A DNA stretch of 64,000 nt from an uncultured Gammaproteobacteria bacterium (GCA_964503125.1 CAZCZE010000021.1:13207-77206), one strand, 5' to 3'; positions 12,995 to 46,552 are shown, counted from the stretch's first letter. Numbers and translations: made by a program. The notes: generated by a model not told the origin, from the letters alone.

Positions 12995-13019
12995 CTAGCG
13001 CACCGCGGAGGATGCCGTC

Positions 13020-15067: not shown

Positions 15068-15079
15068 GCTCCGCCTACC

Positions 15080-15784: not shown

Positions 15785-15888
15785 GCCGAAATCCTCCAAT
15801 AGGGTCGCGTCGCCGCAAACTGCCAAACCGGCCGCGAAAAAGCAATGCTAAAGTCTCGCCGTCGCGAGCGCGTCCAAAGGGGGGGCTC

Positions 15889-17190: not shown

Positions 17191-17203
17191 GGCGCCGTCA
17201 CGG

Positions 17204-29687: not shown

Positions 29688-30227
29688 GTGGCCGCGCCTG
29701 GCCGCAACGGCGAGCTCGCACTCGTCGCTCTCGACGGGCGACGCGAAGTGCTCGGCCGGCTACCGGGCACCGTCTACGCGCCGCGGCTCACGCGCGAGGG
29801 CTTGCACGTGGCGTTCGACGATCAAGCCGGCGGCACGTCGAGGGTATACGTCGCCGCGCTCGACTCGCGGCAGCCGCTGCCTTCGGTCGAAGGTGGTAGC
29901 TCATTCCCGCTCTGGTCGTTCGACGACGAGAGCGTCTTTTTCATCGCGACCCGCAACGGCGAGCAAGCGCTGTTCGCGCAGCTCGCGGACGGCACGGGTG
30001 CACCGGAGCTCATCGTGTCGCCGGCGCGCGCGCCCGAGGCCTGGACTCCGAACGGTCGCCTGCTGAATTTCATCACGCCGCGCGACGGCGACTACGCGAT
30101 CTCGGCCTGGGACGCGTTCGACCGCACCGTCACGCGGGTCTTAGGGCGTGACGGCTCGCTGCAGCACAGCAGCCACTACTCGCCCGACGGCCGGCTGCTC
30201 ATGCTGTTTTCCGGTCGACTGAGGCCG
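29688..30227 (+). pseudogene. Truncated TolB/PD40 beta-propeller gene fragment
   Basis: APRLTREG.HVAF, PLWSFDDESVFF, PEAWTPNGRLL, HYSPDGRLL repeats. No RBS or N-terminal domain; similarity stops at the direct repeat. Confidence 0.65.
30183..30227 (+). repeat. Left direct repeat of the 13.3-kb block
   Basis: cccgacggccggctgctcatgctgttt (30183-30209) is identical to 43526-43552; the next 18 nt match with 1 indel and 2 mismatches. Confidence 0.92.
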
Positions 30228-30636
30228 TTCGCGGATAGGACGGATAATCGGGTTGTGTCGGCCGATGAGCTGCGCGCGCGACTGGAGCGCGCGACGGCCT
30301 GCCGATGCCGGCATGCGCGGTGCTCGCGGTTTCCGTGGCGCTGTGTCTCCTTTGCGGCGTTCGGGTCTTCCAGCTCCCGGGACGCATCGAGGTCGCCCAG
30401 CAATACGGATATACAGCGGAGCGTGCGCCGCATTCGTCGACGAGTTGCGCGAGCGCTTGGGTCAGAACGACGCCATCGAGTCCGTCTCGATCCTGCACAA
30501 CGTAGACGGCATGCAGGGGGGGCCTCCGATCGCCATCGGGGAATTGGCGCAGGGCCAGCATTGCAAGCTTGGTAGCCTGTTCCCTTCAACGGGCGTACGC
30601 TTGGCGATTAGCTCCCCGCCAAGAGGGAGGGCCACG

Positions 30637-33600
30637 ATGAATTGTCCGCGCTGCGGAACGCCAAACCGCGACGATCGACGGTTCTGCTCCGCGTGCGGGA
30701 TGCGTTTGACCGTCGCGTGCCAGGATTGCGGCACGCAGAACGAGCCGCCCGTGCGTTTCTGCGGCGGGTGCGGCAAAGCCTTGCCGAGCGCGGACGCGGC
30801 AGCGGCGCGGAGTCCTTTCCACGATATCGAGCGCCGTCAGCTGACGGTGATGTTCTGCGATTTGGTCGGTTCGACCGCGCTGTCGCGCGAGCTCGATCCG
30901 GAGGATCTACGTGACCTGCTGCGCCGGTATCACGAGCAAACGCGGCGGGTCATCGCGCGCTACGGTGGATTCATCGCGCGTTACGTGGGCGATGGGCTCC
31001 TGATCTACTTCGGCTACCCGCATGCGCGCGAGGACGCAGCCGTGCGGGCGATCCACTCCGGCCTCGAGATCACGAGCCTGGTTCGGGAAACGGCTGAACC
31101 TCTCCGCGGCAATCCCGCCGGACTGGCAGTTCGAATCGGCATCGCAACCGGTCTCGTCGTCGTCGACGACTCGATCGGCGACCGCGTCGCCGAAGACGCT
31201 GAAGCCGTCGGCGAAACTCCGAATCTCGCTGCCCGCCTACAGGGTCTCGCGGAACCGAACAGCGTCGTCGCCGCCGACGCGACACGCGAGCTGGCAGGCG
31301 GCCTATTCGTCTACGAAGATCTCGGCCTACAGCAACTGCGCGGCTTCGACCAGCCGGTCCGCGCATGGCGCGTGCTGCGCACGAGCGAAGCCCAGAGTCG
31401 GTTCGCGGCGGCACGCGGCACCCAGCAGACACGTCTGATCGGTCGCGACACCGAGCTGGGCCTCTTGCACGGTCACTGGCGAGACGCGGCGCGCGGCGAT
31501 GGCCGGCTCGTTCTGCTCACGGGCGAGGCCGGCATCGGCAAGTCGCGGCTCGCCGAGTCTCTCGCCGATCAAATCGCCGGCGAGCCGCATGTGACCATTC
31601 GATATCAGTGCTCGCCGTATCACCTCAACACTGCGCTGCACCCTTTCATTCACCAACTGGAGCTCGCGGCGAATCTGCGGCGCAACGACGATCTCGCGAG
31701 CAAGGTCGAAAGGCTCGAAGCGTTGCTTGCCGACGCGCGCATGGAGAAGGAGGAAGGCGTTCCGCTGTTTGCCGCATTGTTGTCGCTGCCTGCGTTGGAT
31801 CGCTATCCGCGCCTACAAATGACTCCGCAACAGCAGAAGCAGAAGACTCTGGTGGCGTTGCTCGACTATGTCAGGAGCAGCGCTTCGCACAGCCCGGCAC
31901 TCCTCATTTTCGAGGATTTGCACTGGATCGACCCGACGTCCACGGAATTTTTGACTCTGCTTGCGCCGCTCGTCGCGAGCATGCCGGTTCTGGTCGTCGC
32001 GACTTCACGGTCGACGACGCAGCACGACTGGCTTCAACTACAGCACGTTCATACGCTGCAACTCGAAAGGCTCGACCGCCGCCATGCGGCGACCATGATC
32101 AGCCATCTTCTCGAGAACGAGAACCCGCCGGCCAACCTCGTGAATGAGATCATGGCGAAGACCGATGGTGTACCGCTCTTCATCGAAGAGCTCGCGAGAA
32201 CGCTACTGACGGCCGGGCTCCCGAAGGAGCACGATCCGGCGTCGCTGCGCCAGCCGGCGACGATTCCATCTACGCTGCAAGATTCGTTGATGGCGCGACT
32301 CGATCAGCTCGGCACCGCTCGAAAGGTCGCCCAAGTCGCGGCTGCCATCGGACGCGAGTTCTCTTTCGAGCTGCTGGCGGCGATCGCGCCGCTCGACGAG
32401 ACCGAGCTACGCGATGCGCTGTCGACGTTGACCGATGGAGCGGTCCTGCTCGCACGCGAGGAAGGCGCGACGACCACGTTCCAATTCCGGCACTCGCTGG
32501 TGCAAGCCGTGGCGTACTCCAGCTTGCTGCGCAGCACTCGCCGCGAGCTTCATCAACAGATCGCGGCAACTCTCGAGAGCCGCTATCCGGAGCGCGTGCG
32601 CGTCGAGCCCGAAATCATCGCGCATCACTACACCCAGGCTCACGAGGATTTGCGCGCGGCGACCTACTGGGCGGCGGCAGCGCTGCGCGCGCTCGAACGT
32701 TCGGCGTTCGTGGAAGCACAAGGACACGTCACCAAGGGACTGAGCCTGCTCGAAGGCGCCGACGAGACGGACCGCGACCGCGCTCGGTTGACGCTCAACC
32801 TCGAAGTGCTGCGCGGCGCTGTGTACCGCGCCGTGAAAGGCTTCGCCTCGTCGGGCGCAGAGCAGAGTTTCACGCACGCACTCGACTTGTGCGAGCGCCT
32901 CGGCGACACCCGCAGGCTCGTGGATGTGCGTCGCGGGTTGTTCGCCTGCTACTACTCGCGCGGCACGCATGCGCTGGCGCAGGAGCAAGGCCAAGAGGTC
33001 AAGGCATTGGCCGAACGACTCGGCGATTCGGGCGCACGCATGCTGGCTCACTGGATGCTCGGCTGCGTCGCCTTTTGGAGAGGCGAGCTCGTCGCGGCCG
33101 ATCGCGAGCTCGAGGAAGCGATCGCGCTTTATGACCCGAAGCAGCAGCAAGCGAACACGCTCGCGCTACAGATCGATCCGGGCGCCAACGCGCTCTGCCA
33201 TCGCGGCTGGCTGCAGTGGACGCTCGGTTATCCGGACCGCGCCCTGCAGACGAGCGAGCACGCGATAAAAACAGCGCGTGACCTCAACCAACCGTTCGCT
33301 TTGTCGATGGCGCTGTTCTTTGCGATCGTCACACGCACGTGCTGCGGCGATTGGGAGATCGCGGCGCGCCAACTCGAAGAGCTTACGTCCGTGACCACGG
33401 AACACGGGCTAGAGTATCTGCGCAGCGTCGCGCGAGTGCTCAAAGGCCAGGAGCTGATCGCATCCGGCGAACTTGCGGCCGGCGTCGACGAGACGTTGCT
33501 CGCGCTCTCCGAGCTCGAAACTCAAGAGGCAGGTTTGGGAGTGCCCTGGACCTTGTCGATCCTCGCGCTCGGGTACACGCGGCTCGGCAAGACTGCCGAG

Positions 33601-33975
33601 GGCTTCGATACGCTGGACAAGGCGTTCGCAGTGGCCGAGCGAAACGGCGAACGCCACTGGGAAGCCGAGCTGCACCGCCAGCGTGGCGACCTGCTGCTGT
33701 TAGGCCCATCGCCCGATCAGACGGAAGCCGAGCGCTGCTACCGAAACGCGATGCAGGTCGCGCACCTCCAAGGCGCGACGTCGCTCGAGCTGCGGGCCGC
33801 GATGAGCCTCGCCCGGTTGCTCGAGCGCCAGCGCCGGCAGGCAATGGCGCAAGACGTTCTCTCCGAGGCTCATGCCCGGCTCACCGAGGGCTTCGACACC
33901 GTCGACCTGCGCGAGGCGAGCACGCGGTTGGAATCTTTCGTCGCCGCTAGGCATGACAAGCTGCGATCTTCGTAG
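30637..33975 (+). CDS. Double zinc ribbon - class III adenylate/guanylate cyclase - STAND AAA ATPase - TPR protein
   Basis: Four CxxC pairs; FCDLVGST, YVGDG, GETPNLAARLQ; Walker A GEAGIGKS; FEDLHWID; TPR-like tail; GGAGG before ATG 30637. Confidence 0.93.
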   Translation: MNCPRCGTPNRDDRRFCSACGMRLTVACQDCGTQNEPPVRFCGGCGKALPSADAAAARSPFHDIERRQLTVMFCDLVGSTALSRELDPEDLRDLLRRYHEQTRRVIARYGGFIARYVGDGLLIYFGYPHAREDAAVRAIHSGLEITSLVRETAEPLRGNPAGLAVRIGIATGLVVVDDSIGDRVAEDAEAVGETPNLAARLQGLAEPNSVVAADATRELAGGLFVYEDLGLQQLRGFDQPVRAWRVLRTSEAQSRFAAARGTQQTRLIGRDTELGLLHGHWRDAARGDGRLVLLTGEAGIGKSRLAESLADQIAGEPHVTIRYQCSPYHLNTALHPFIHQLELAANLRRNDDLASKVERLEALLADARMEKEEGVPLFAALLSLPALDRYPRLQMTPQQQKQKTLVALLDYVRSSASHSPALLIFEDLHWIDPTSTEFLTLLAPLVASMPVLVVATSRSTTQHDWLQLQHVHTLQLERLDRRHAATMISHLLENENPPANLVNEIMAKTDGVPLFIEELARTLLTAGLPKEHDPASLRQPATIPSTLQDSLMARLDQLGTARKVAQVAAAIGREFSFELLAAIAPLDETELRDALSTLTDGAVLLAREEGATTTFQFRHSLVQAVAYSSLLRSTRRELHQQIAATLESRYPERVRVEPEIIAHHYTQAHEDLRAATYWAAAALRALERSAFVEAQGHVTKGLSLLEGADETDRDRARLTLNLEVLRGAVYRAVKGFASSGAEQSFTHALDLCERLGDTRRLVDVRRGLFACYYSRGTHALAQEQGQEVKALAERLGDSGARMLAHWMLGCVAFWRGELVAADRELEEAIALYDPKQQQANTLALQIDPGANALCHRGWLQWTLGYPDRALQTSEHAIKTARDLNQPFALSMALFFAIVTRTCCGDWEIAARQLEELTSVTTEHGLEYLRSVARVLKGQELIASGELAAGVDETLLALSELETQEAGLGVPWTLSILALGYTRLGKTAEGFDTLDKAFAVAERNGERHWEAELHRQRGDLLLLGPSPDQTEAERCYRNAMQVAHLQGATSLELRAAMSLARLLERQRRQAMAQDVLSEAHARLTEGFDTVDLREASTRLESFVAARHDKLRSS

Positions 33976-33987
33976 GAGCAGGGAAAA

Positions 33988-35490
33988 ATGACCAACAACA
34001 GACTCACGAGCAGCAAGATATTCGAGCCGATCAAGATCGGTAACGTGACGTTCGATAACCGGATCCTGCGATCGTCCGTCGGCGGACGTCATTGCACTTA
34101 CGACGGTACGGTCACCGACGTCTGGAAGAACTTCGAGACGCGCTTCGCGGAGGGCGGCGTCGGCGGAATCATCGCGACGACATTTCACGTGAATCCTCAT
34201 CGGCTTTCACCGATGCAATATCCCTCGATCGCCGACGACAAGTTCATGTTGAACCTCGAGCGGCGCATCCGCGAAATCAAGCGCGCGCGCCCGGGATTGA
34301 AGTACATCATCCAGATCGGCGACCCCGGTTACGTCACGTACGAAAGCCTTTTCAGAGATCCGAAGGACGCGCTGTCTGCGTACGGTGGATTCGATCTCGC
34401 GTTCGGCTATCAAACGTGGCGCAAACCGATGTCCGAGGGGGAAATCTGGCAATCGATCGCCGATCACGCAGAGGCCGCGAGGCGCGTGCGAGAGGTCGAC
34501 GCCGACGGCGTCGAGATCGCGGCCGCCAAAGGCTACCTGATCCACCAGTTCCTGAACCCCGGCATCAATCGCAGGCGGGACCAATGGGGCGGAAACCCCG
34601 AGAACCGGTTTCGGTTCTTTGAGGAAGTCGTCAAGGCAGTACGGAAAGCAGTCAAGGACGACTTTCTCGTCGGAGTCAGGCTCGCGGCCGCCGACCACAA
34701 CCTGAGCCCATTGGCCTTTGCGGCGATGCGCTGGCCGTCACCGTTGCTTGCGTTATCGCGAGAGCGCCGGCACGGCAACGACGAGGCGCAGATGATCGCC
34801 TACGCGCAAAAGCTGCAGAGACGAGTCGACTATCTGCACATCGTGTCGGGTTTCGGTTTCCCGAGCCCGCGCGAGACACCCGGCGACTTCCCGTACGACG
34901 AAGTCAAGATGTTCTTTCACGCGACCCATACGCTGACGGGGAAGACCCGGCTGCGATCGGGGCTGTTGACGTTGATCCCGAAGCACGTCCTGCGATGGGT
35001 GCTGTCGCGCGGGTGGAAGTACGTTCCGGCGATCAATCGCGACGCCGCAAAACGGTTCAAGGAGCAGGTGCGGGACTGCAAGGTCATCGTCAACGGCGGT
35101 TTCCGCGAGCGCGCCACGATCGAAGAAGCGCTCGACTCGGGCTCGGCCGACATGGTGTCGATGGCGCGCGCATTGCTCGCGAACCCCAACTTGCTGAACT
35201 TGCTCCGCGACGGTCACGACGCACCGAACCGTTGCTCCGGCTGCAACAAGTGCGTCGGACGGACCGGAACGAGCCCGTTGGGTTGTTACGACGTACGCCG
35301 GTTCAACGGCGATGTACAACGGATGTACGAAGAGATACTGAAATGGAACGAGCCCGATCGGTTCGACGCCGCCGACCGCGAGCCCTCCGAGCGACAGGAT
35401 GAAGAAGAAACGGCTCCGCCGCCGAATGTCGAGGTCCTGAGGGCTGAGCTCAGCCGCCTATCCCCTGGTGCGCAGCCGGCACCGAAATGA
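33988..35490 (+). CDS. NADH:flavin oxidoreductase (Old Yellow Enzyme family), atypical
   Basis: FEPIKIG...NRILRS, GYLIHQFLNP..NRR.DQWGG..ENRFRF, VNGGFR, SMARALLANP, CSGCNKC. Confidence 0.88.
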   Translation: MTNNRLTSSKIFEPIKIGNVTFDNRILRSSVGGRHCTYDGTVTDVWKNFETRFAEGGVGGIIATTFHVNPHRLSPMQYPSIADDKFMLNLERRIREIKRARPGLKYIIQIGDPGYVTYESLFRDPKDALSAYGGFDLAFGYQTWRKPMSEGEIWQSIADHAEAARRVREVDADGVEIAAAKGYLIHQFLNPGINRRRDQWGGNPENRFRFFEEVVKAVRKAVKDDFLVGVRLAAADHNLSPLAFAAMRWPSPLLALSRERRHGNDEAQMIAYAQKLQRRVDYLHIVSGFGFPSPRETPGDFPYDEVKMFFHATHTLTGKTRLRSGLLTLIPKHVLRWVLSRGWKYVPAINRDAAKRFKEQVRDCKVIVNGGFRERATIEEALDSGSADMVSMARALLANPNLLNLLRDGHDAPNRCSGCNKCVGRTGTSPLGCYDVRRFNGDVQRMYEEILKWNEPDRFDAADREPSERQDEEETAPPPNVEVLRAELSRLSPGAQPAPK

Positions 35491-38400
35491 CGGCGGCCGC
35501 TGCGCATTCGCCGAGGCGGCGGTAGCTTTCCCACTGCTCGTCGGTGAAGAACTGGTCGAGCGTCGAATCGTGCGGAAAATGCAGATTGCGGGCCGCGTAT
35601 GAACGGAGGTCGAGCGGCATATCGCCAAGCCGGCTCGCATTGATCATCAACAACCAACACGGCGTCCCACCGTTATCGTAGTCGACGCGCGCCAACGCGC
35701 TGGAGTGACGTCCGAGACGCCCGATCTCCCACAGAGACCCGACGCCGGCGGGGTCGACCCACTCTCGAACCCACTTTGGAACGTGGCCGTTCGGGTCGAG
35801 AGCGGACCAACGGCCACCACCGGGCGGCGCTGGTCTCGGCTCGAGCCAACTGATCTCGGCGCCGAAGTCCAAACGGGCGCGCCGCATGAGCAGCGCGATC
35901 GCCGCCAGCTGATAGTCCTTATCCTCCGTCGCATTCGCGCAGATCATCAAAGCCACACGCCGGCGCAGCAACTCGTAGACGCCGGTCTCCTCGAAGTGCC
36001 CGCCGTCGCTCAGATACCAAAGCCGCTCGGAGGGTCCCGTGAAGTACCCCCGCCACTCGTTCAAGATCGCCGCGTGCGCGGGGAATATCCGCGCAACCGA
36101 GGACTTCAGGCGCCGCAGCAGTGCCGGCGGGTAGCGGCCGGGCCTCGCGCCGCCTTCGATGCCGGAGTTCCACCAATAGCCGAGCCGGATGTTGAACAAG
36201 CCGAGCAGCAGCGACGTCGGCAGGCTGGTGTGCCGCCCCAAGCCGGTCCCGAGCGCCGCGCCGGACGTCGAGATCCACTGGCTCAGCATGAGCGGCTCCA
36301 CGGGCGCCGGCTCGCCGCTGCGCTGTGCGAGCACATGAAATGCGCCCGGATCCGTGCCGCTCGTGACGGCCGTGAGGCCCGCCCGGAGCGCATGCGGGTC
36401 GTCCGCATCGGGTTCCCACAGCGCGTGGAACCGTCTACCGACGCTGACACCGCTCGGACCGACACACATCGACAGACCTTTGTCGAGACGCAACGGGCGT
36501 GCCGAGGCTGCATCGACCGTCTCGTTGACGCAGGCGTTGATGAGGTGCAGCGGTCCGCCGTAACGCTGTGGGTCGTACTCATCGAACGGCAAGTCGTCCC
36601 CGGGATCCGCCGCCTGCACTTCCGAGTTCGCGTCCGCGGGCCTTGCATGCACGCGGGTTGGGTTCGCGGCTCCGAGGAAAGCGCGGCTCAAGCGCGCGGC
36701 ATACAGCGCCTGCAACGAGAGCGTGTTCGGAAAGTCGCTCGACTGCCCGATCGCGAGCGACAGCCCGAGCGCGGCGAGCAACAGCCAGATCCCGAGAGTG
36801 CGGCTCGACTCGAATGCCGAGTGCACGAGAAGATCCAGGGTGAACAGCAGGAAGCCGAGCAACACGAACGCCAGCACCCACCGCACGAATCGGCGCAACC
36901 AGCGACTCAGAACGGAGAACGACCCTTCTTCGCCGCGGACGAGATTCTCGACGAACGCGCGCAACACGGGCAGCGCGGCCGCAATGCCGGCCATGCCGAC
37001 CGTCGCCATCGGCAGCATGCCCGTCACGGTTGAGCGGCGCGCGAGCGCGTCGAGCGCTACCCAACCGGCGCAGATCGCGACGAGTAGCAAGCTTTCGCCG
37101 GCCGCGCGCGTGAGCCGGTTGCGGGCGAGATCGCCGCGCAGCTTGAGCGGCGCCGCGGCACGCCAGCGCACCGCCTCCTGCGCGACCCAAGCGAGCACCA
37201 GCAGCAACAAGGCGAGCGGCGCGTAGGGCCGCAACTGCGGCACGCCGAGCGCGGATACCGCGGCCGCGAGCCCGAACAACCAGACTGGAATCGAGGCGCG
37301 CGGATGCTCCAGCGTGCTGGCGCGCGGCGGAGCGAGCCAGTACGCGAGCGTAGTCGGCACGAGCGCGACTGCGGCCACGACGACCGGCAGCCACCACCAG
37401 GGCCCGAGCGGGATCCCGAGCAGCGTCACGCCGTCGATCTGCGCGAACACCGTGTCGGCGGCCAACCGCAAAGTCGCGAGCGCCGCGACGAAGAATGCGC
37501 CGATGCACACGTGCACCGCGAGCAGGTTGCGCCAGATCGTCGCGATGTTCGACGTCAAGTCCGAGCGACCTTCGCCCGAGATGTAGTTTGCATGCGTGCG
37601 GAGCCACCACATTTCCGGGGAACCCGTATCGGCGAGCGCGGCTTGCACGCGTCGCGGCATGTGAGCCATGTCCTTGCCGCGCATGAACAGTCTGCCGAGA
37701 AAGGCCCCGATATAGCCGCCTCCCGATACGGTCGATAGGAAATCGATGCCGCGGAACCGATCGCAGCGCGCGAGCGCCTGCACGACGCCCAGCGCGAAGG
37801 TCGCACTGCGGATACCGCCGCCCGACAGAGCGAGCCCGACCGCGTCCGCGGGCAACTTTGCGTCGGCCGGGTTCGCCGGAGGCGGCGGTGGCCGATCGAT
37901 CGCGAGCTCACGCCGCCTATGCACGGCCCTCGCCTCGGCGGCGCGCAGGTGACGCGGATATTCGCGGCGGTCTGCGAGCAGCACGTCGGCTGCCTTCTCG
38001 CCGATCATGAACACCGACGCAGCGATGAAGTAGCCGGGGATCTCGGGAAACACCGACGCATCGACGACGCGTAGACCCTCGACGCCGTACACCCGGAAAT
38101 CGCTCGAAACGACTGCGTCGGTCTTTTTCGTATCGGGGCGCCACGCGTCGGAACCCATGCGACACGTGCCGCACGCGTGGTGGCCCCAAGCTTGGTACTT
38201 GACCCACTCCTCGAGCACACGCGAGTAGTCCCCGGCCTGCGGGCCGGGCTGAAGCTCGGACTTGAACGGCTTGATCGTCGCGTTGAGCTTGCGCACCCAC
38301 TCGATTCCCTCGAGCAGCGTCGTGACATCCTTGTCCGCCTCCTCCGAGCTCTCGTCGAAGTAACGGAAGTTGATCACCGGCTGCTCGAACGCAGAATCCG

Positions 38401-40138
38401 ACCGAAGCTCGACCGTACCGCTGCGATTGCGCGTGTGGCCCTGCAGGAGGACCCACGTCCACAGCCTCCGGGTCAGCGCGTGCTCGGGCGGCCACGTCAT
38501 GTCCCCGAGGCGCAGGACGGTGCTCAGCAATTGTCTCGACCAGCCGTGGTAGTAACCACGAAACGCCACCGGGAAGCCCACGATCAGCAGGTCCGGCTCC
38601 TCGCCATAACGAGGCTCGTCGGTGGTCATGAAGATCGCGAGCGCACCGCCGTTCGTCGCGTAGAGCCCGCGGCCGGTCCTGAGCCACTCGTCGCGCGCGC
38701 GATCCCCGTCGTGCCCTGGCTGGAACGACACGGTGCGTAGCGTCCGGAATTCCTTCTTCGTCTCGCTGATGATGCTGATCTCGTTGCGGTCCTGAAGGTA
38801 GCGCCCGACCGCCGGCAAATGGACGATTTCGCCGACCTTCGCGCCGTCGTGGCCCTGCAGTCCGTCGATGCCGTGCTTCTGCAACTGTTCCTTGTCGCCG
38901 ATGCCGCTCAGCATGAGCAGCTGCGGTGTGTTGAAGACACCGGCCGAAAGAACGATCTCGCGCGAAGCATAGAACCGCTTCAACGGAGCCTTCTCCGCGG
39001 CCTGCGCGCAGAAGCGTGGACTCGCGTCGTAAAGGTGCGCCCCGCAACGCACTTCAACGCCGATGGCGCGCGGCGTTTCACCTTCGACGTGGTCGGCGAA
39101 AATCACGCGCGTGACGTGCGCGCCGGTCAGAATCACGAGCCGATCCGGATGCCGGGTGGCAGTCTCGCGCAAATGCTCGCGAACACCGACGCGACGGCTG
39201 CCGTCGGTGCCGATCGGGATGAACGACAGCGTCGGGTTGTCCGTCGCGCGCGGCGTGTCGAGGTTCGGGTCGAGATACTTCACCCACTGCGTCACCAACA
39301 CGCGCTTGAGCAGCTCGCCGATACCTCCGGCTCGGAGCAGATGGCCGAATACTCGCAGGATTATGCGGCGGAAGGTCCCGTCTCGCAGTGCGATACCGAC
39401 GACGAGCACCGGATCGATGAAGCTCGTCTTCTGCCAACCGGCGAACCCGTGCCCTCCGCCGTCGAGTGTCAGGCGCGGATTCAGGAAAGCGACGAGGTGA
39501 CGCCAGCCGCTGTAGAAAAACCCGAGGGCCCTACGAAAGAACCCGTGGTACTGCGTGTAATAGAGGCAATTCTCGACGCGAGTGAAGTAGCCGTTCATTT
39601 TCTCCGCGCGCCAGCTATCGTCGTGCGTCAGGCTGGCGATTCGGTTCCAGTCGCCGGCCGGAGGCTTGACCACGATCATGGCGTGATGCGCCGTGCAGCC
39701 GCCGAGCGCGCTGGAACGCGGATAGTGCACGCCGCCTTTCGGCCCATCCCCGCCCTTCGAGGGGTCGGTGCGGATGTCGTACTTCAAGTCACGCTGTTGC
39801 AGCTCGTCGTCGTCGTAGTGACGCACCGAGTAATCCCAGTTCAGCACCTCGTCCTCGGCCGCGGCGGGGTGATAACCGGGGATGCGATAGACCTCGCGCT
39901 CCTCGCGATCGTTCGGGGCGCCGTCGGCATCGGCGCGCGGCGGCACGAACGGACCGCCCGTTTCCGTGTGCGGCAATCCGGGGTCCAATCCCGACTCGAT
40001 GACGAGCACGCGCAGGCCTTCGAGGGCGAGGCGCGCCGCCAACGGGCCGCCACCGGCTCCCGACCCGACGACGATGTAATCGAACGGGGTCTCCTCGTGA
40101 GCCTGCGCCTTCTCGATCAGCTCGTGGACAGTTGGCAT
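35450..40138 (-). CDS. GMC oxidoreductase - patatin/cPLA2-like phospholipase fusion with membrane helices (1562 aa)
   Basis: GSGAGGG, WGHHACGTCRMG, RVVDASVFP; then LALSGGGIRSATF, STVSGGGY, many hydrophobic helices, and LSDGGHFE. GAGG before ATG 40138. Confidence 0.88.
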   Translation of the reverse strand: MPTVHELIEKAQAHEETPFDYIVVGSGAGGGPLAARLALEGLRVLVIESGLDPGLPHTETGGPFVPPRADADGAPNDREEREVYRIPGYHPAAAEDEVLNWDYSVRHYDDDELQQRDLKYDIRTDPSKGGDGPKGGVHYPRSSALGGCTAHHAMIVVKPPAGDWNRIASLTHDDSWRAEKMNGYFTRVENCLYYTQYHGFFRRALGFFYSGWRHLVAFLNPRLTLDGGGHGFAGWQKTSFIDPVLVVGIALRDGTFRRIILRVFGHLLRAGGIGELLKRVLVTQWVKYLDPNLDTPRATDNPTLSFIPIGTDGSRRVGVREHLRETATRHPDRLVILTGAHVTRVIFADHVEGETPRAIGVEVRCGAHLYDASPRFCAQAAEKAPLKRFYASREIVLSAGVFNTPQLLMLSGIGDKEQLQKHGIDGLQGHDGAKVGEIVHLPAVGRYLQDRNEISIISETKKEFRTLRTVSFQPGHDGDRARDEWLRTGRGLYATNGGALAIFMTTDEPRYGEEPDLLIVGFPVAFRGYYHGWSRQLLSTVLRLGDMTWPPEHALTRRLWTWVLLQGHTRNRSGTVELRSDSAFEQPVINFRYFDESSEEADKDVTTLLEGIEWVRKLNATIKPFKSELQPGPQAGDYSRVLEEWVKYQAWGHHACGTCRMGSDAWRPDTKKTDAVVSSDFRVYGVEGLRVVDASVFPEIPGYFIAASVFMIGEKAADVLLADRREYPRHLRAAEARAVHRRRELAIDRPPPPPANPADAKLPADAVGLALSGGGIRSATFALGVVQALARCDRFRGIDFLSTVSGGGYIGAFLGRLFMRGKDMAHMPRRVQAALADTGSPEMWWLRTHANYISGEGRSDLTSNIATIWRNLLAVHVCIGAFFVAALATLRLAADTVFAQIDGVTLLGIPLGPWWWLPVVVAAVALVPTTLAYWLAPPRASTLEHPRASIPVWLFGLAAAVSALGVPQLRPYAPLALLLLVLAWVAQEAVRWRAAAPLKLRGDLARNRLTRAAGESLLLVAICAGWVALDALARRSTVTGMLPMATVGMAGIAAALPVLRAFVENLVRGEEGSFSVLSRWLRRFVRWVLAFVLLGFLLFTLDLLVHSAFESSRTLGIWLLLAALGLSLAIGQSSDFPNTLSLQALYAARLSRAFLGAANPTRVHARPADANSEVQAADPGDDLPFDEYDPQRYGGPLHLINACVNETVDAASARPLRLDKGLSMCVGPSGVSVGRRFHALWEPDADDPHALRAGLTAVTSGTDPGAFHVLAQRSGEPAPVEPLMLSQWISTSGAALGTGLGRHTSLPTSLLLGLFNIRLGYWWNSGIEGGARPGRYPPALLRRLKSSVARIFPAHAAILNEWRGYFTGPSERLWYLSDGGHFEETGVYELLRRRVALMICANATEDKDYQLAAIALLMRRARLDFGAEISWLEPRPAPPGGGRWSALDPNGHVPKWVREWVDPAGVGSLWEIGRLGRHSSALARVDYDNGGTPCWLLMINASRLGDMPLDLRSYAARNLHFPHDSTLDQFFTDEQWESYRRLGECAAAAVISVPAAHQGIGG

Positions 40139-40182
40139 CGTGCTCACCTCGTTGCCGTGCGGCTGAAGCGGACGCTCGAGCG

Positions 40183-43100
40183 CTAGAGCGTGCGTAGGAA
40201 CGCTTTGAGCTGCCGCTTTTCGTCGTCCGACAGCGGCTCTGCGAACCAATGGCCCCGGTCGAGCACGAAGTCCGGGCTCTTGTTGATGCGCAGCAGCGCG
40301 AGCCCGGCCTCGCGCTCGAACTCTGCAAGCACGTCCGCGTCCGTCACCCTATCCGCCTCAACCTCCACACAAGGTTTGTGCGCCGCTAGCAGCCGCGCCT
40401 TGAAACCGGCGCGTAGCAATGCCGAGAGTCCGTTCGCAATGTCGCCTCCGGCCGCCGACGAGCTCGCGTTGATGACGAGACTCACGGGCGTGCCTTTCGG
40501 TATCGGTCCGACGATGAGGTCTCCGCGCCGGCCCGACGTGAACTCGTTGAGCCACCAGCCGAGGTACAAGCTGAGGGCCGCGAGCAAGGCGAATGTCGCT
40601 CGTGCGAGCCAGCGCCGACGATCGCGTGCCCAGAACAACAACACGACCGCCACGGCTACGGTCGCCACAGGCCCCACCCACGGCCAGATGCCGAAGACAT
40701 AATCGAGGCGGGTGACGACGAGAACGGCCGCGTTGAGGACCGCGATCAGAAACAGTGCAAACGCCGCATGGCGGGCGCGCCCCGCGGCCGCGAACACGAG
40801 GCACGCGGCGGCGAGCGCAATCCAGAGGTACAGGGTTGCGACCCGCGTCCCGAACGGGCCCAGCACGCTCTCGAACAACGAACGAATGAACGGCTCCCGG
40901 AAAATGAAACAGCTCTCGGCTGTCGTCCGGTAGATGAAACCCGGGTCGTTGCCGGCGAGCTCGGGGTGCGTCAAGCGCAGGTCGCCGGGCCGGGAATTTG
41001 CGCTGGGTTGCCGCCGGTCTTTCCAGAGCAGCTTGTCGATACCGTCCTCGAACGCGAGCAGTCGACCTTCGATGGACGGATCTCGATTTAAGAGCCCTAG
41101 CGCATTGTTATGCAGGTACGGTGCCGTCGCCCAGAGGCCGATCAGGGACGGCGGCCGGTAATAGCCGGGTCCGCCGGACGGCGGGTAGTAGACATCGTTG
41201 TTGCCCCAGACATCGAGCGGCGCGCCGGAATAGGGATTGTAGAAATGCACGGGCCCGACGGCCGGCAGGCTCTTGTAATCCTCCGAGGAGAAATTGTCCC
41301 AGACCTGTCCGCGCATCGCGTTCGTGCCGACGGCACGCTGAGAGTTCGTGCCGACGAGCGTGACCGGGACACGGATGTCCGTCGAAAGAAAATTGTCTTC
41401 GAGGAAGGGGTCGGTCGCCGCGGCCGGCGTATCGGCCGGGGTACCTGCGATCGTACTGATTTGCCGCACGTAGCCGGCATACGCCGCGCTGTTCGTGAAC
41501 CTCTCCCAGTCCGCGAATGTGCGCGGCAACACGAGCCGCGTGAAGGGCCACGCCGTCGATCCCGAGTGCTCTTCCCAGTCGTCCGCGAACTGAAGTGCGA
41601 ATCCTTCGGGCTGCTTGCTCGAGTGGCAGATCGCGCAGTTCGCGATGAACACGGCGCGGCCGGCGCTCGCGCGCGCGCGCTCCTCCTCCGAGATCGGCGG
41701 GGCGCCTCGCGCGCTCGCGAGCGGCATCGGTGGCGCGACGTTGGCTCCGGTCCGCGGGTTCTCGTAGAGGAAGTAGTCGAGAATCGCCGGCACTCGATAC
41801 TTTAGCGAGGTGCGCCAATAGACGGAATTCGCGCGCAGGCTCGCGACCGAGAACGGCCGTTGCCCGCGGAAACCGATGATCGGCCGCGACGTGCGGGCCC
41901 ACTCCTCCGAAAACGTGCCGATGTTGAGGTACACGCGTGCGACGGAGGCTACCGCGCCGATGCTGTCGCCGCCGTCGACGAGCATCCGCGGCGTATGGCG
42001 CGGCGTAACCCTCGCATCGCTCTCCTCGAGCGACGGCACGAGCAGGCTCGCGCGACCTTGCTCTTCGGGCGGGTTTCGCATCGCGCGGTCGACCCGGGCC
42101 GGCAAGTCGAACACCGCGTTGATCGTGTTCGAGTTGTTGATGTGGTCGGAGCTGAGCAGCGACGTGTCGACGGTGCCGGGCTGTTGGCTGTTGAGGAAGT
42201 GGAAGAAGAAGGACTTCTCGTCCGTGAGATTCGCGAAGAGTCGGACGGGCGTCCAGTATTGATTGCCGATCGTGCTCGACAGATTGCTCCACGCGGGCTC
42301 CGCGGGATCCGCCGGCGGGTTCAGCGGGTGCGGCGCGACGTGGCAATACGCGCACGACATGCCGACGCGAAACGGCCGAACCAACTTGGGGTCGCCGTGG
42401 ACGTCGCGAGCGAGGTCGTAGAACGCGTCGCTCGAGTCCTCGACGCGCTCCTTCCAACGGAGACGCGCTTCTCCGGCCTCTGTGGTGTTGCCGAAAAAAT
42501 CCGGGTTCAGCATCAGACGTAACCCGATCACGCCGCTCGGATACCCGTAGACGAGCGGGTCGACGCCGTCCTTCGGCAGGCGCTGGATGGTGTCCTCGTA
42601 GAGCTCGCGGTCACCCGGCTCGAACGGCTCGTAGAGCCCGGTCGGCTGCGGCCGAGGCGGCTCGGACATCCCCACATCGGCGTCCGCTTCCGGCGGCCGC
42701 AACAGGATCTCGTCGCCGTTCGCTTCGTCGAGATAGAGGCCGAGCAACTTGCGGGCGGGATCGGTCTGCGCCCGCATGCCGGGCTGATTGATCATTCCGC
42801 GGTCGCGGAAGCGAAACGCGCGCTGACGCGAATCGAGCAGAACTAGAAAGTCGACGAGGCCGAAGCCGTGCTGCTGTGCCCAGTTCCAGAATTCGTCGTT
42901 GCCGCCAGCCCACAGCATCCAAGAGTTCTTGCCGCGAATGGCGTCGCGCGCGTCCGGTGTAACGCGCGCGTCCGCGGGGACAGGCGCGCCATCAGTGAAG
43001 TCGAACGGCTCGAGTTGACCCGTGGGCCCGACGATCTGATCCATTTCGTGGAACAGATTGCGTGGTTCCACCGGAAACGAGTCGTCGTCGCGCTGCCAAA

Positions 43101-43341
43101 CAGGCGTACCGCTTGCCGTGTGGCCGCGCTGAGGCTCGTCTTGCGGCGCGGCGGGATCGGCCTCCGTCTGCCACTGCTCCCACCCTTGTTCGGAGGAGGG
43201 TGCCCGCGCGGCCTGAGGAAGAGGTGTCGCGCCCCGATCGTCGCCGCCCTCGCGCACGAGCAGGACGACGACGGCGACGAGAGCCGCCGCATAGAGCAAA
43301 GATTGGCGCCTCGCCCCGTGACGCTGCTGCCGACGCTTCAT
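40183..43341 (-). CDS. Membrane-anchored di-haem c-type cytochrome, RoxA/di-haem peroxidase-like (1052 aa)
   Basis: CAYCH (42340-42354), CAICH (41623-41637), PSLIGLWATAPYLHNN, C-terminal RGHWF..LSDDEKRQLKAFLRTL; N-terminal anchor plus about 4 internal TM helices. Confidence 0.8.
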   Translation of the reverse strand: MKRRQQRHGARRQSLLYAAALVAVVVLLVREGGDDRGATPLPQAARAPSSEQGWEQWQTEADPAAPQDEPQRGHTASGTPVWQRDDDSFPVEPRNLFHEMDQIVGPTGQLEPFDFTDGAPVPADARVTPDARDAIRGKNSWMLWAGGNDEFWNWAQQHGFGLVDFLVLLDSRQRAFRFRDRGMINQPGMRAQTDPARKLLGLYLDEANGDEILLRPPEADADVGMSEPPRPQPTGLYEPFEPGDRELYEDTIQRLPKDGVDPLVYGYPSGVIGLRLMLNPDFFGNTTEAGEARLRWKERVEDSSDAFYDLARDVHGDPKLVRPFRVGMSCAYCHVAPHPLNPPADPAEPAWSNLSSTIGNQYWTPVRLFANLTDEKSFFFHFLNSQQPGTVDTSLLSSDHINNSNTINAVFDLPARVDRAMRNPPEEQGRASLLVPSLEESDARVTPRHTPRMLVDGGDSIGAVASVARVYLNIGTFSEEWARTSRPIIGFRGQRPFSVASLRANSVYWRTSLKYRVPAILDYFLYENPRTGANVAPPMPLASARGAPPISEEERARASAGRAVFIANCAICHSSKQPEGFALQFADDWEEHSGSTAWPFTRLVLPRTFADWERFTNSAAYAGYVRQISTIAGTPADTPAAATDPFLEDNFLSTDIRVPVTLVGTNSQRAVGTNAMRGQVWDNFSSEDYKSLPAVGPVHFYNPYSGAPLDVWGNNDVYYPPSGGPGYYRPPSLIGLWATAPYLHNNALGLLNRDPSIEGRLLAFEDGIDKLLWKDRRQPSANSRPGDLRLTHPELAGNDPGFIYRTTAESCFIFREPFIRSLFESVLGPFGTRVATLYLWIALAAACLVFAAAGRARHAAFALFLIAVLNAAVLVVTRLDYVFGIWPWVGPVATVAVAVVLLFWARDRRRWLARATFALLAALSLYLGWWLNEFTSGRRGDLIVGPIPKGTPVSLVINASSSAAGGDIANGLSALLRAGFKARLLAAHKPCVEVEADRVTDADVLAEFEREAGLALLRINKSPDFVLDRGHWFAEPLSDDEKRQLKAFLRTL

Positions 43342-43525
43342 TTTCGTTTTCTCCCCCAGGCTCGAGCCGGGGTACGCGGTTATACGAAGCGGAAAGGAGC
43401 CTCAGCGCTGCTATCTTATGTAAGTTCTCTCCAAAACGTTAGCTCTCGTAGCCAAGACGGCTGCGCGCGGCCGGGTAGTGGCGGTTGCGAGGACCGTGAA
43501 CCGGTCGCCGGCCGTCGACATCGCA

Positions 43526-43569
43526 CCCGACGGCCGGCTGCTCATGCTGTTTCCCGTCGACTGGGGCCG
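43526..43569 (+). repeat. Right direct repeat of the 13.3-kb block
   Basis: 43526-43552 is identical to 30183-30209 and continues cccgtcgactggggccg. Confidence 0.92.
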
Positions 43570-43684
43570 CGTTGCCGGCGAGGGCCCCGTCGAACTTGGC
43601 CTTAGGACCGCAGTCGAACTCGAGTCGGTCGAGCCGGCGCCGTGCTACCGTAATGGCAACAATAATGAGCTCCGGGGGATGCCC

Positions 43685-46438: not shown

Positions 46439-46552
46439 GTCGCGACGCCGTTCCTCGGGCAAGTAGATCTCGCAAGTCCGCGCTGAATCGTCTTGAATCG
46501 TTCTGATCGGGTCGCCGCGCCCGCCCGGCGCAATTTCCGGTATCGTCGCGCC

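Follow-up and report, generated by a model that had tools for sequence, protein, structure and literature searches.

A widespread di-haem cytochrome and GMC-patatin gene pair, convergent with a STAND cyclase operon, is probably tied to oxidative processing of a membrane lipid

The window, a 64,000-nucleotide stretch of DNA from an uncultured Gammaproteobacteria bacterium (GCA_964503125.1, CAZCZE010000021.1:13207-77206), was predicted from its sequence to contain two convergent two-gene operons, and the ORF listing and translations confirmed this layout. Genes A and B (plus strand) face genes D and C (minus strand) tail to tail, with gaps of 12 bp between A and B and 44 bp between D and C, and B and C share 41 bp at their 3' ends (35450-35490). 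The domains of all four genes were verified with Pfam and NCBIfam, while two finer labels of the original prediction, RoxA-type for gene D and classical old yellow enzyme (OYE) for gene B, did not hold. GC3 in genes A-D is of coding type (0.78-0.83), below that of the adjoining genes (0.86-0.93). Because the ORFs, the domain calls and the coding-type GC3 agree, the four-gene arrangement is real. Over 30637-43341 the A-B and D-C operons converge without co-transcription of one with the other. The features are as follows.

30637..33975, plus strand: gene A, 1112 aa, STAND-type class III nucleotidyl cyclase (Pfam, NCBIfam)
33988..35490, plus strand: gene B, 500 aa, FMN (OYE TIM-barrel) and [4Fe-4S] module of the FadH/TMADH class (Oxidored_FMN)
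35450..40138, minus strand: gene C, 1562 aa, GMC flavoprotein-patatin fusion
37904..40138, minus strand: gene C residues 1-745, GMC flavoprotein domain (GMC_oxred_N, GMC_oxred_C), predicted cytoplasmic
37538..37903, minus strand: gene C residues 746-867, first half of patatin-like hydrolase, with oxyanion-hole motif GGGIR and nucleophile Ser805 in TVSGGG
36740..37537, minus strand: gene C residues 868-1133, insertion of about 8 transmembrane (TM) helices (hydropathy scan)
35450..36739, minus strand: gene C residues 1134-1562, second patatin-like half, with catalytic Asp1378 in SDGGHFE
40139..40182, minus strand: D-C intergenic spacer, 44 bp
40183..43341, minus strand: gene D, 1052 aa, integral-membrane di-haem c-type cytochrome with two CXXCH motifs

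Gene D encodes a protein anchored in the membrane that carries two c-type haem-binding motifs, CAYCH (residues 330-334, at 42340-42354) and CAICH (residues 569-573, at 41623-41637). An N-terminal anchor (1-33) is followed by a periplasmic domain of ~800 aa, four TM helices (831-935) and a conserved C-terminal domain (936-1052), and the signal/anchor and TM count place the predicted catalytic mass in the periplasm. Distant orthologues begin with lipoprotein-type signals. Both CXXCH motifs, H744 and H1031 were invariant in 132 sequences, and the family comprises 1518, 916 and 327 clusters at 50% identity for E<=1e-3, 1e-10 and 1e-30, respectively. The evidence for a RoxA-type enzyme was confined to short motifs. 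The RoxA-like_Cyt-c match was marginal (27.1 bits, cut-off 26.7), the NF040606 di-haem peroxidase model scored 37 bits over one third of its length (cut-off 150), the alignment with a rhizobial NF040606 protein spanned only 28 columns around one haem motif, and PF21419 was matched in 25 of 25 orthologues via the short motif RPPSL..W.TAPYLHN. This motif and the two CXXCH motifs are common to the RoxA/RoxB rubber oxygenases and the NF040606 subfamily; however, gene D is twice as long and has five TM helices, whereas RoxA is secreted and cleaves polyisoprene. A Foldseek search of the PDB with the AlphaFold model of gene D (pLDDT 88.5, pTM 0.90) returned no fold match at E<0.9, including to RoxA (4b2n) or any cytochrome, and thus 'RoxA-type' holds only at the motif level. 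Since no likeness of gene D to RoxA, CCP or MauG was detected in fold or along the full sequence, a dioxygenase role for it is a guess.

Gene C joins, in one polypeptide, a GMC flavin dehydrogenase domain and a patatin-type Ser-Asp hydrolase domain, the catalytic parts of which are cytoplasmic by predicted topology. The GMC domain matched profiles of choline oxidase, alcohol oxidase and fatty-acid photodecarboxylase (E ~1e-42). Its FAD motif GSGAGGG, H151 and H653-H654 were invariant in the orthologue alignment. H654 aligns with the choline oxidase catalytic His, and an invariant G-Y-F stands in place of the second catalytic His/Asn. Pfam Patatin was matched in 33 of 38 orthologues, with a score for this gene C (28.0 bits) that barely exceeds the 27.7 cut-off; residues 746-867 also matched profiles of VipD, ExoU and cPLA2-delta. 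G773-G-G-x-R777 and S805-G-G were invariant in 33 sequences, as was D1378-G-G in the alignment. The TM insertion separates the two patatin halves, no signal peptide was found, and the Arg/Lys-rich loops, as read from the sequence, alternate as expected for an N-in/C-in topology; since the helix count is even, the GMC domain and both patatin halves would stay cytoplasmic. The GMC and patatin/TM parts are separate adjacent genes in Planctomycetota and some Verrucomicrobiota, providing a Rosetta stone for the fusion, and a P450 is fused to the C-terminus of gene C in three Casimicrobiaceae-type loci. The invariance of the FAD motif, H654, GGGxR, Ser805, Asp1378 and both CXXCH motifs favours catalytic competence of the D-C pair.

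Of 79 genome loci from six phyla, 74 have gene C directly 3' of gene D and in the same orientation, with a median estimated gap of 41 nt in the 74 loci, and gene D lies upstream of a GMC-patatin gene in all 14 metagenome loci with enough flank. The 44-bp spacer in the window likewise indicates an operon junction. Carriers include Alpha-, Beta- and Gammaproteobacteria, Verrucomicrobiota, Planctomycetota, Myxococcota and Thermoanaerobaculia, in which the module is patchy and often plasmid-borne. Thus, D-C is an obligate gene pair and the core of the locus. A literature search found no publication on this gene set, and the earlier note knew of no described system with such a composition; D-C is a widespread and undescribed membrane pair.

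By topology, gene D is periplasmic and gene C cytoplasmic, and together they have 13 TM helices. This helix content, and the nearness of the GMC domain to choline and alcohol oxidases, would suit a redox module in which the GMC domain oxidises a small alcohol in the cytoplasm and electrons pass via quinone in the TM domains to gene D, acting as a periplasmic quinol-dependent peroxidase or oxidase, with the patatin fold mainly a scaffold or regulator. Membrane-bound complexes that dehydrogenate sugars and alcohols are known to pair a GMC flavoprotein with cytochrome c, and there are quinol peroxidases anchored in the membrane. As in D-C, the flavoprotein and cytochrome genes of such complexes are adjacent and their products membrane-associated. 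However, the FAD glucose, gluconate, sorbitol and fructose dehydrogenases have all subunits in the periplasm, a small subunit with a Tat signal, a three-haem cytochrome and no lipase, whereas the GMC part of gene C has no export signal and is cytoplasmic by its 8-TM topology, opposite gene D. No invariant His that could serve as a b-haem ligand was found in any TM helix in the alignments of genes C and D, and the OYE, P450 and extra di-haem accessories described below would be left unexplained. Catalysis by the patatin domain is favoured by its Ser-Asp dyad and oxyanion hole, neither of which varies across phyla. We therefore regard a redox module as improbable.

Gene B was described by the original prediction as an OYE reducing enals and enones. 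This candidate was rejected: gene B is an FadH/TMADH-type FMN/[4Fe-4S] module that lacks a reductase domain. It matched Oxidored_FMN with 173 bits, its closest PDB match was 2,4-dienoyl-CoA reductase (1ps9), and its motif C416-x2-C-x2-C-x10-C433 (35233-35286) was aligned with the cluster ligands of 1ps9 and histamine dehydrogenase (3k30). FadH and the trimethylamine and histamine dehydrogenases (FMN, [4Fe-4S] and ADP/FAD) have the same FMN TIM barrel and CxxCxxC...C motif, but gene B ends after the cluster motif and has no C-terminal FAD/NAD(P)H domains, so that it needs an external electron partner. It falls far under every cut-off of the NCBIfam equivalog models and belongs to a distinct subfamily of ~450 aa with 783 matches. 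The final ~40 residues of gene B, which give rise to the 41-bp overlap with gene C, are not conserved.

Gene A starts at an ATG with AGGGAGGG just before it, and its N-terminus is kept in the L089 homologue. It has a double zinc ribbon, a Guanylate_cyc domain, an AAA_16 NTPase and TPRs (Pfam, NCBIfam), with predicted metal-binding Asp residues in FCD73 and GDG118, the motif NLAARL196 and the Walker A sequence GEAGIGKS296. Gene A is thus a class III cyclase joined to a sensor of the STAND NTPase-TPR type. It shares the order of cyclase, NTPase and TPR with STAND class III adenylyl cyclases (TIGR03903 'TOMM kinase/cyclase', mycobacterial Rv0386-like), and scored 574 bits over positions 280-1266 of TIGR03903, under the cut-off of 706. 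In contrast to that architecture, gene A has no kinase domain and has an N-terminal double zinc ribbon, and it is set apart from STAND class III cyclases by its specific co-transcription with an FMN/Fe-S reductase. In five of eight contexts of B homologues (L084, L086, L087, L089 and L090; Ramlibacter, Variovorax and three metagenome contigs), a cyclase with 45-57% identity to gene A directly precedes the OYE in an operon free of D-C. A-B is therefore a second conserved operon, independent of D-C.

A sensor cyclase near a patatin could also point to abortive infection of the CBASS or Pycsar style, in which the STAND cyclase senses infection and produces a cyclic nucleotide, and the patatin destroys the membrane. 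Known defence systems include STAND sensors as well as patatin effectors, and the cyclase domain of gene A matched Pycsar PycC models (E 1e-15 to 1e-5). However, those matches reflect generic class III cyclase homology, genes B, C and D had no match in a PADLOC search, gene C has no cNMP-binding domain and its constant partner is a periplasmic cytochrome rather than a cyclase, and the neighbourhoods are metabolic or regulatory, without defence islands. This alternative, raised by the original prediction, was not supported, and we consider it highly improbable.

Whether the two operons belong together was judged from the co-occurrence of the four families. The whole A-B/C-D block recurred only in two close relatives with 69-81% identity, the P0002 contig and L095, one of which differs in the D-side (upstream) flank. 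Elsewhere the operons mostly occur apart: a B homologue is absent from all 80 genome loci holding gene D, and an A-like cyclase is present in only 6-7 of them. The predicted single four-gene system thus resolves into two modules with no fixed four-gene unit. It is possible that these are neighbours by chance, with A-B a self-contained sensor-cyclase/reductase that has no part in D-C function, as their separate occurrence, the convergent orientation and the unconserved overlapping tail of gene B would allow. We consider this unlikely, because two further contigs retain the block, one of them with another flank, and because the families meet repeatedly in other arrangements. A TM-less D-like gene lies directly 5' of a B-type OYE in two of the eight B-homologue contexts (L083, L088), and in L087 a C-like patatin/TM gene lies 2 kb from the cyclase-OYE pair. 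A seven-gene operon on Rhizobium and Sinorhizobium plasmids (pRL11 of R. johnstonii 3841; S. fredii, with different flanks) encodes, in order, an OYE, a RoxA-like di-haem protein, a 143-aa protein, a second RoxA-like di-haem protein, a D-like protein, a GMC protein and a patatin/TM protein; it holds a genuine NF040606 member (203 bits), of which the sole PDB relative is RoxA 4b2n. In seven loci of a Burkholderiales/Casimicrobiaceae clade (L015, L018, L021, L025, L054, L063, L131), a paralogous STAND cyclase (34-36% identity to gene A) and a P450 adjoin D-C in the same orientation; the three P450 fusions to gene C are among these seven. The best PDB matches of this P450 were the fatty-acid hydroxylases CYP4B1 and P450 BM3, its I-helix has acid-Ala in place of acid-Thr, and no reductase accompanies it. 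These recurrent independent associations support a functional link, and D-C and A-B are probably tied to the oxidative processing of a membrane lipid.

We estimate at about 40% the probability that both operons act on a common substrate class, most likely an unsaturated inner-membrane acyl lipid, in a full oxylipin-like pathway. By inference only, this would be a trans-membrane enzyme set that oxygenates, frees and redox-tailors the lipid, with lineage-specific cNMP or two-component regulation. As genes C and D are on opposite faces, a substrate common to both would have to lie within the bilayer or pass through it. Gene D would oxygenate or peroxidatively convert an unsaturated acyl chain in the periplasmic leaflet. 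The patatin domain of gene C would then cut the (oxidised) chain off the glycerolipid at the cytoplasmic face, with its 8-TM insert opening access to the bilayer and probably docking the TM helices of gene D, and its GMC domain would dehydrogenate the hydroxyl to a ketone. Gene B may reduce the conjugated C=C formed in this way, perhaps taking electrons from the gene C flavin via its own Fe-S cluster; in other lineages, the reductase-less P450 fused to gene C would replace it. Gene A may bind a pathway-related ligand and make cAMP or cGMP, which would act on cNMP-dependent transcription factors such as the cNMP-binding regulators adjoining the D-C locus L018 and the A-B-type locus L090. The output would be an oxidised, oxylipin-like fatty acid, either a signal or a breakdown intermediate. 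The substrate assignments all derive from family membership and gene neighbourhood, and the lipid release, oxygenation, tailoring and sensing proposed earlier are likewise inferred; as a whole, that interpretation is partly supported. Counting against a lipid pathway are the lack of the usual second catalytic His/Asn in the GMC domain, the near-threshold Patatin score and the many D-C loci in other company (below); the convergent and mostly separate operons count against a single pathway.

The first step is modelled on the periplasmic di-haem, CCP-like fatty-acid dioxygenases of Pseudomonas aeruginosa, PA2077 (10S-dioxygenase) and PA2078 (7,10-diol synthase; 'FadCCP'), the oxidised products of which are sensed by a dedicated regulator in oxylipin-dependent signalling (PMC4496055, PMC6377657). 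The likeness of gene D to this oleate-diol synthase, which acts on unsaturated fatty acids, lies in the CXXCH pair and the periplasmic location. As described, however, PA2077 and PA2078 belong to the CCP family, are soluble and ~600 aa long, and have no TM helices; neither has a GMC-patatin protein, an OYE or a cyclase as its partner. Gene D has no CCP fold match. The proposed set also has the enzyme kinds of the plant oxylipin/jasmonate pathway, which comprises an acyl-lipid lipase, a lipoxygenase, a CYP74 P450 and the old yellow enzyme OPR3: an acyl-lipid hydrolase, a haem/iron oxygenase, a reductase-free P450 and an OYE-family ene-reductase. The plant P450 needs no reductase, and the D-C-linked P450 lacks both the I-helix Thr and a reductase partner. 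Homology of the parts is no closer than superfamily level: the plant oxygenase is a lipoxygenase and not a c-type di-haem protein, its OYE is of the OPR and not the FadH/[4Fe-4S] class, and it has no counterpart of the GMC dehydrogenase.

The same enzymes and topology could serve to repair or detoxify peroxidised membrane lipids rather than to make a product. Gene D would then act in the periplasm as a (lipid) hydroperoxide peroxidase, and the damaged acyl chain would be excised by the patatin domain, much as in eukaryotic peroxiredoxin 6, where a peroxidase and a PLA2 activity are united. The GMC domain with gene B or the P450 would dispose of hydroxy/enone fragments, and the cyclase or two-component systems would report stress. 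The only family signal of gene D is a 'di-heme cytochrome c peroxidase' model, the adjoining regulators vary by lineage as expected of an inducible stress operon, and OYE-class enzymes are commonly associated with electrophile stress. However, no nearby gene encodes a periplasmic protein that could donate electrons to a peroxidase, thiol-peroxidase and stress-regulon genes are not among the conserved neighbours, and a patchy, often plasmid-borne module would be unusual for core membrane repair, which makes such a role rather doubtful. In ~35 D-C loci the adjoining genes instead encode DUF4331-like, TPR, HupE/UreJ_2 or DUF4198 proteins; no link of these proteins to lipids is obvious, and they hint at a different theme, such as metals.

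The four genes lie in the window as two convergent pairs, whose limits according to the ORF list and the translations are as follows.

30637-33975, + strand: A, STAND cyclase, 1112 aa
33988-35490, + strand: B, OYE-type FMN/[4Fe-4S] protein, 500 aa
35450-40138, - strand: C, GMC-patatin fusion with transmembrane (TM) helices, 1562 aa
40183-43341, - strand: D, di-haem membrane cytochrome, 1052 aa

This arrangement was confirmed as originally predicted: 12 bp separate A from B, 44 bp separate D from C, and B and C share 41 bp at their 3' ends. The predicted domains were likewise returned by Pfam and NCBIfam, namely cyclase and STAND in A, Oxidored_FMN in B, GMC and Patatin in C, and two CXXCH motifs in D. 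A scan for promoters and terminators across 29700-43600 gave no signal above chance.

A survey of D in one genome per GTDB species yielded 80 loci from Alpha-, Beta- and Gammaproteobacteria, Verrucomicrobiota, Planctomycetota, Myxococcota and Thermoanaerobaculia, 79 of which included DNA downstream of D. A C orthologue started directly after D, on the same strand, in 74 of these 79 loci (median gap, 41 nt); among the rest, C was nearby on the opposite strand in two and absent in one. In the reverse test, the patatin/TM part of C was searched against metagenome contigs. Patatin proteins with multi-TM insertions form a large superfamily that includes this part. Only a clade of ~33-48% identity within it carries the GMC domain, and D stood in front of the GMC-patatin gene at 14/14 metagenome loci with enough upstream sequence. 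These results show that D and C are an obligate pair, which constitutes the core two-gene module. In Pirellulaceae, Gemmataceae and some Verrucomicrobiota, GMC and patatin/TM are encoded by separate adjacent genes with a 4-bp overlap, and the fusion in the window therefore serves as a Rosetta stone for two interacting enzymes. Metagenome loci L103-L170 (L-numbers denote the loci compared) encode stand-alone multi-TM patatin-like proteins, with a median length of ~1000 aa and 25-41% identity to the C-terminal part of C; they lacked both a GMC domain and D, and conserved neighbours that might hint at function were not found.

The D family is large. Searches gave 889 matches with the window protein as the query and 4632 with a verrucomicrobial member, and the family forms 1518, 916 and 327 clusters of 50% identity at E<=1e-3, 1e-10 and 1e-30, respectively. 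Its full-length relatives are named only "hypothetical" or "cytochrome c". The two c-type haem-binding motifs of D, CAYCH330 and CAICH569, were invariant across 132 sequences. Both are held in a domain of ~800 residues, which is assigned to the periplasm because c-type haem attachment requires this compartment. The N-terminus of D is an anchor, and distant orthologues carry lipoprotein-type signals; four TM helices (831-935) have their positive loops on the cytoplasmic side, and topology prediction places a conserved C-terminal domain back in the periplasm. One verrucomicrobial locus has a second, shorter D-like gene (736 aa) after the patatin/TM gene (L065, 9581-11791).

D had been proposed to be a RoxA-type enzyme, and this assignment did not survive closer comparison. 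An AlphaFold model built from 25 sequences was poor (pLDDT 55), and the model from 132 sequences, which was confident (pLDDT 88.5, pTM 0.90), was used instead. Foldseek, for which haem-less cytochrome c models can be hard, found nothing in the PDB at E<0.9 with this model, and a two-domain cytochrome c peroxidase fold was not recovered. A D profile searched against PDB sequences matched only the CXXCH neighbourhood and returned no relative, and Pfam gave no match to PF03150 (CCP_MauG). D scored 37 bits against the di-haem peroxidase model NF040606 (cut-off, 150) and 15-17 bits against the RoxB and RoxC models (cut-off, 900). The sole family-level model that it passed was PF21419, a 39-residue RoxA-like_Cyt-c motif (27.1 bits; threshold, 26.7), and hhalign aligned only 28 columns of D with a genuine NF040606 protein. 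Membership in the RoxA type was therefore dropped, and the resemblance is one of motif.

In C, GMC_oxred_N scored 56.7 bits (cut-off, 23) and GMC_oxred_C 94.8 bits (cut-off, 24.6). An alignment of 33 C orthologues from the fetched loci showed that the FAD-binding GxGxxG motif, H151 and H653-H654 are invariant. H654 aligns to the catalytic His of choline oxidase, and the second catalytic His/Asn position is occupied by an invariant G702-Y-F704 instead. Choline oxidase, alcohol oxidases and fatty-acid photodecarboxylase are the closest GMC enzymes of solved structure, each matching at ~E 1e-42, and the GMC matches identify no substrate. The window contains a second, stand-alone GMC oxidoreductase of 594 aa, 12 kb from C (22081-23865, - strand).

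The Patatin Pfam score of C is only just above the gathering threshold, and VipD, ExoU and cPLA2-delta are matched only around GGGxR...Ser. The motifs that correspond to the catalytic elements are as follows. The oxyanion-hole motif G-G-G-x-[RK] is G773-G-G-I-R777, of which G773-G-G-x-R777 is invariant; the putative nucleophile elbow is T-V-S805-G-G as compared to G-x-S-x-G, with the first Gly replaced by Thr and the Ser and Gly-Gly invariant; Ser805 aligns to the Ser of VipD and ExoU; and the catalytic Asp motif D-G-[AG] is an invariant D1378-G-G. D1378 lies ~570 residues past Ser805 because the TM insertion intervenes: approximately eight TM helices (residues 868-1133) split the patatin domain into two halves. 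From the even number of helices, the distribution of charge in the loops and the lack of a signal peptide, the GMC domain and the two patatin halves are predicted to be cytoplasmic, so that the catalytic parts of D and C are on opposite faces of the membrane. Judged from their sequences, the catalytic residues of C and the haem motifs of D are intact, and lipase activity is predicted for C.

B, which had been described as an OYE, does contain the FMN TIM barrel of that family (Oxidored_FMN, 173 bits; cut-off, 27); it is better described as a FadH-type Fe-S flavoprotein in a distinct ~450-aa subfamily. Its Cys motif, C416...C433, aligns to the [4Fe-4S] ligands of 2,4-dienoyl-CoA reductase (1ps9) and histamine dehydrogenase (3k30). 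B has 500 aa as compared to 670-730 aa and lacks the C-terminal FAD/NAD(P)H domains, and would therefore need an outside electron partner. All of its NCBIfam equivalog scores were far below the cut-offs; by sequence, B resembles FadH and is not FadH. In A, Pfam identified a double zinc ribbon, a class III cyclase (Guanylate_cyc), an AAA_16 STAND NTPase and TPR_12. The metal-binding Asp pair, the Asn/Arg, the Walker A/B motifs of the NTPase and the repeat sensor were located, and Arg was read at the position expected for the adenine-specifying Lys. We examined B homologues in eight genomic contexts. A STAND cyclase stood immediately 5' of the B homologue, with an overlap or a gap of <=10 bp, in five of them (L084, Ramlibacter; L086, Variovorax; L087, L089 and L090), and A shares 45-57% identity with these OYE-linked cyclases. 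Thus, A followed by B is a second conserved operon. A D-like gene preceded the OYE in two contexts (L083 and L088), and neither gene was found at L085.

The complete block of A-B and C-D recurs in two relatives, L095 and the contig P0002, at 69-81% identity, and the flank on the D side (upstream) in P0002 is unlike that of the window. The window is high in GC (65-70%); GC3 is 0.78-0.83 in A-D versus 0.86-0.93 in the neighbouring genes. A coding-looking stretch without a clear start lies between a beta-lactamase-family gene and A (29688-30575, + strand). It had zero Pfam matches and looked like a beta-propeller remnant only by eye; possibly it is what remains of a gene at the block's edge. This putative remnant, the lower GC3 and the different flank in P0002 together suggest that the block moves as one unit. 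The flanking genes (beta-lactamase-family hydrolases, PEBP, lipid A acyltransferase, M16 peptidase with ABC exporter, and tannase) are unrelated to A-D, and their adjacency to the module is not kept elsewhere. A double M16 peptidase (986 aa) and then an ABC exporter diverge from D across a 136-bp spacer (43478-48445, + strand), and this pair did not lie beside D at any of the other loci examined.

The original prediction joined all four genes in one system. What held up is a recurrent functional network around lipid-type chemistry; its components are two modules, as the cyclase-OYE pair occurs alone in five of the eight contexts, with no adjacent D-C at any of the five. D-C and A-B could then be two unrelated modules that are adjacent by coincidence, a question orthogonal to that of the chemistry, and we regard such coincidence as improbable. 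The families meet in other arrangements: the D-family proteins encoded directly before a B-type OYE at L083 and L088 are TM-less, and at L087 a C-like patatin/TM gene lies 2 kb away from the cyclase-OYE pair. A seven-gene, same-strand operon on pRL11 of Rhizobium johnstonii 3841 (L171, 3017-15369; NC_008384.1, RL_RS32270 to RL_RS32240) has the following order.

Gene 1: OYE, shares 31% identity and the Cys motif with B
Gene 2: di-haem protein, genuine NF040606/RoxA-like
Gene 3: membrane protein, 143 aa
Gene 4: second di-haem protein, RoxA-like
Gene 5: D-like protein, 32% identity
Gene 6: GMC oxidoreductase, 37% identity
Gene 7: patatin/TM protein

The arrangement was also recorded at L175 and L176. 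The operon is conserved on Rhizobium and Sinorhizobium plasmids; its flanks differ on the plasmid of Sinorhizobium fredii, and the patatin gene is missing in Sinorhizobium sp. B11.

A paralogous STAND cyclase and a cytochrome P450 accompany D-C at seven loci, six in genomes (L015, L018, L021, L025, L054 and L063) and one in a metagenome (L131), and the paralogous cyclase is always found with the P450. In the six genome loci, the cyclase is co-oriented with D-C and shares 34-36% identity with A along its whole length; at L131, only a 99-residue fragment is visible at the contig end (48% identity). In three loci (L015, 11408-17551; L063, 6154-12192; L025, ~13045-19038), the P450 is joined to C as a C-terminal fusion, and in another (L054, 13658-15025) it overlaps C by 4 bp. 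Among solved structures, the fatty-acid hydroxylases CYP4B1 and BM3 are nearest to this P450. All seven P450s have D-A-L in place of the expected acid-Thr pair of the I-helix, together with an unusual Cys loop, FFSxxRQSCxG, and no reductase gene was found near them. An acid-Ala pair and the lack of a reductase are as expected for a peroxide-using rather than an O2-activating P450. The P450-cyclase-D-C operon of L018 has as its neighbour a LuxR regulator (14809-15834) that contains a cNMP-binding domain, and the cyclase-OYE operon of L090 has a Crp-type regulator (12601-13404) beside it; both are candidate readers of cyclase output. In Paraburkholderia, the partner of D-C is a hybrid histidine kinase with a LuxR response regulator. 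Thus, redox partners (OYE/Fe-S proteins, P450s and RoxA-like di-haems) and signalling partners (cyclases, cNMP regulators and two-component systems) both recur beside these families.

Other lineages have other third genes. A protein of ~900 aa that matches DUF4331 only faintly stands directly after C at L045 (18391-21162) and at ~24 other loci; this partner occurs in Verrucomicrobiota, Myxococcota and Planctomycetota. DUF4331, TPR and HupE/UreJ_2 genes (with DUF4198 in rhizobia) also lie beside D-C, as at L003 (17677-22107) and L172 (16887-20195), and further partners are Amidohydro_2 and alpha/beta hydrolase proteins. Pfam and NCBIfam gave no function for these recurrent genes (DUF4331-like, HupE_UreJ_2, DUF4198, Amidohydro_2 and alpha/beta hydrolase), and the DUF4331-type set does not fit a lipid model.

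Our main reading, oxidative acyl-lipid processing by the D-C and A-B families, has a probability of roughly 0.4. The shared substrate would be a lipid that resides in the bilayer or passes through it, in the simplest case an unsaturated acyl chain. Four observations point to such a substrate: the patatin dyad implies cleavage of an acyl ester, the nearest solved relatives of the accessory P450 are fatty-acid hydroxylases, the nearest relative of B acts on dienoyl thioesters, and in Pseudomonas aeruginosa periplasmic di-haem enzymes dioxygenate oleate to products that signal (PMC4496055, PMC6377657). The components belong to known superfamilies, and the likeliest chemistry has precedent. As a set, lipase, oxygenase and P450 or OYE resemble the enzymes of plant oxylipin synthesis. 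The same enzymes might instead repair peroxidised lipid, which we consider doubtful. Electron supply is a matter of speculation. Since B and the P450 both lack a reductase and the P450 can be fused to C, the flavin of C might hand on to them the electrons gained from alcohol oxidation. That the genes form a quinone-linked electron-transfer module is a distinctly less probable explanation.

Because D has a novel fold, the membrane arrangement is two-faced and the distribution is broad, there is room for a categorically new reading, in which D and C form an unknown trans-membrane complex making an oxylipin-type lipid signal that the STAND cyclase reads out as cAMP or cGMP. We consider this unlikely as a whole. 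D would then be a novel-fold di-haem oxygenase facing the periplasm and C a flavoprotein-lipase facing the cytoplasm, and the tailoring enzymes (FMN/Fe-S ene-reductase, reductase-less P450 or RoxA-like di-haems) would be interchangeable. The literature searched yielded no description of this gene combination and nothing relevant on patatin with GMC and cytochrome c, on GMC family oxidoreductases with patatin-like phospholipases, on DUF4331 or on pRL11 with patatin, and the database names for the module proteins are all generic.

The original prediction had offered an anti-phage role as its alternative. A defence locus of the Pycsar or CBASS type would pair a cyclase with a cognate cNMP-binding effector; Pfam and PADLOC revealed no such combination here. 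B, C and D had zero PADLOC matches, A had only generic cyclase (PycC domain) matches, and C has no cNMP-binding domain. Phage defence is therefore extremely unlikely, and we rejected it.

The D family comprises hundreds to thousands of sequence clusters from soil, rhizosphere and freshwater bacteria, and its carriers include rhizobia, Paraburkholderia, Verrucomicrobiota, Planctomycetota, Myxococcota and Acidobacteriota. Its strict pairing with the unique fusion protein C, with catalytic domains on both faces, points to membrane-lipid chemistry undescribed in bacteria. To our knowledge, what is known of oxylipins in bacteria comes mainly from a single Pseudomonas system; another, far more widespread oxylipin-type set would raise questions of lipid signalling, membrane repair and plant-microbe interaction, the last because the rhizobial operon sits on symbiosis-related plasmids. 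Were D and C to make such a signal, a lipid-signalling pathway would have gone unrecognised in numerous bacteria of soil and rhizosphere, and it would be the prokaryotic equivalent of jasmonate synthesis with its logic of lipase, oxygenase and P450/OYE. The operon of STAND cyclase and FMN/[4Fe-4S] reductase offers a handle on the ligands sensed by a large, poorly understood class of cyclases, and the rhizobial operon offers a genetically tractable model for the system. An INSeq study of R. leguminosarum 3841 found pRL110509, a 'putative oxidoreductase', to be required in nodule bacteria (bioRxiv 10.1101/2020.05.07.082560). This gene lies near the pRL11 operon, and the RL_RS numbering suggests that it is a neighbouring SDR gene and not an operon member.
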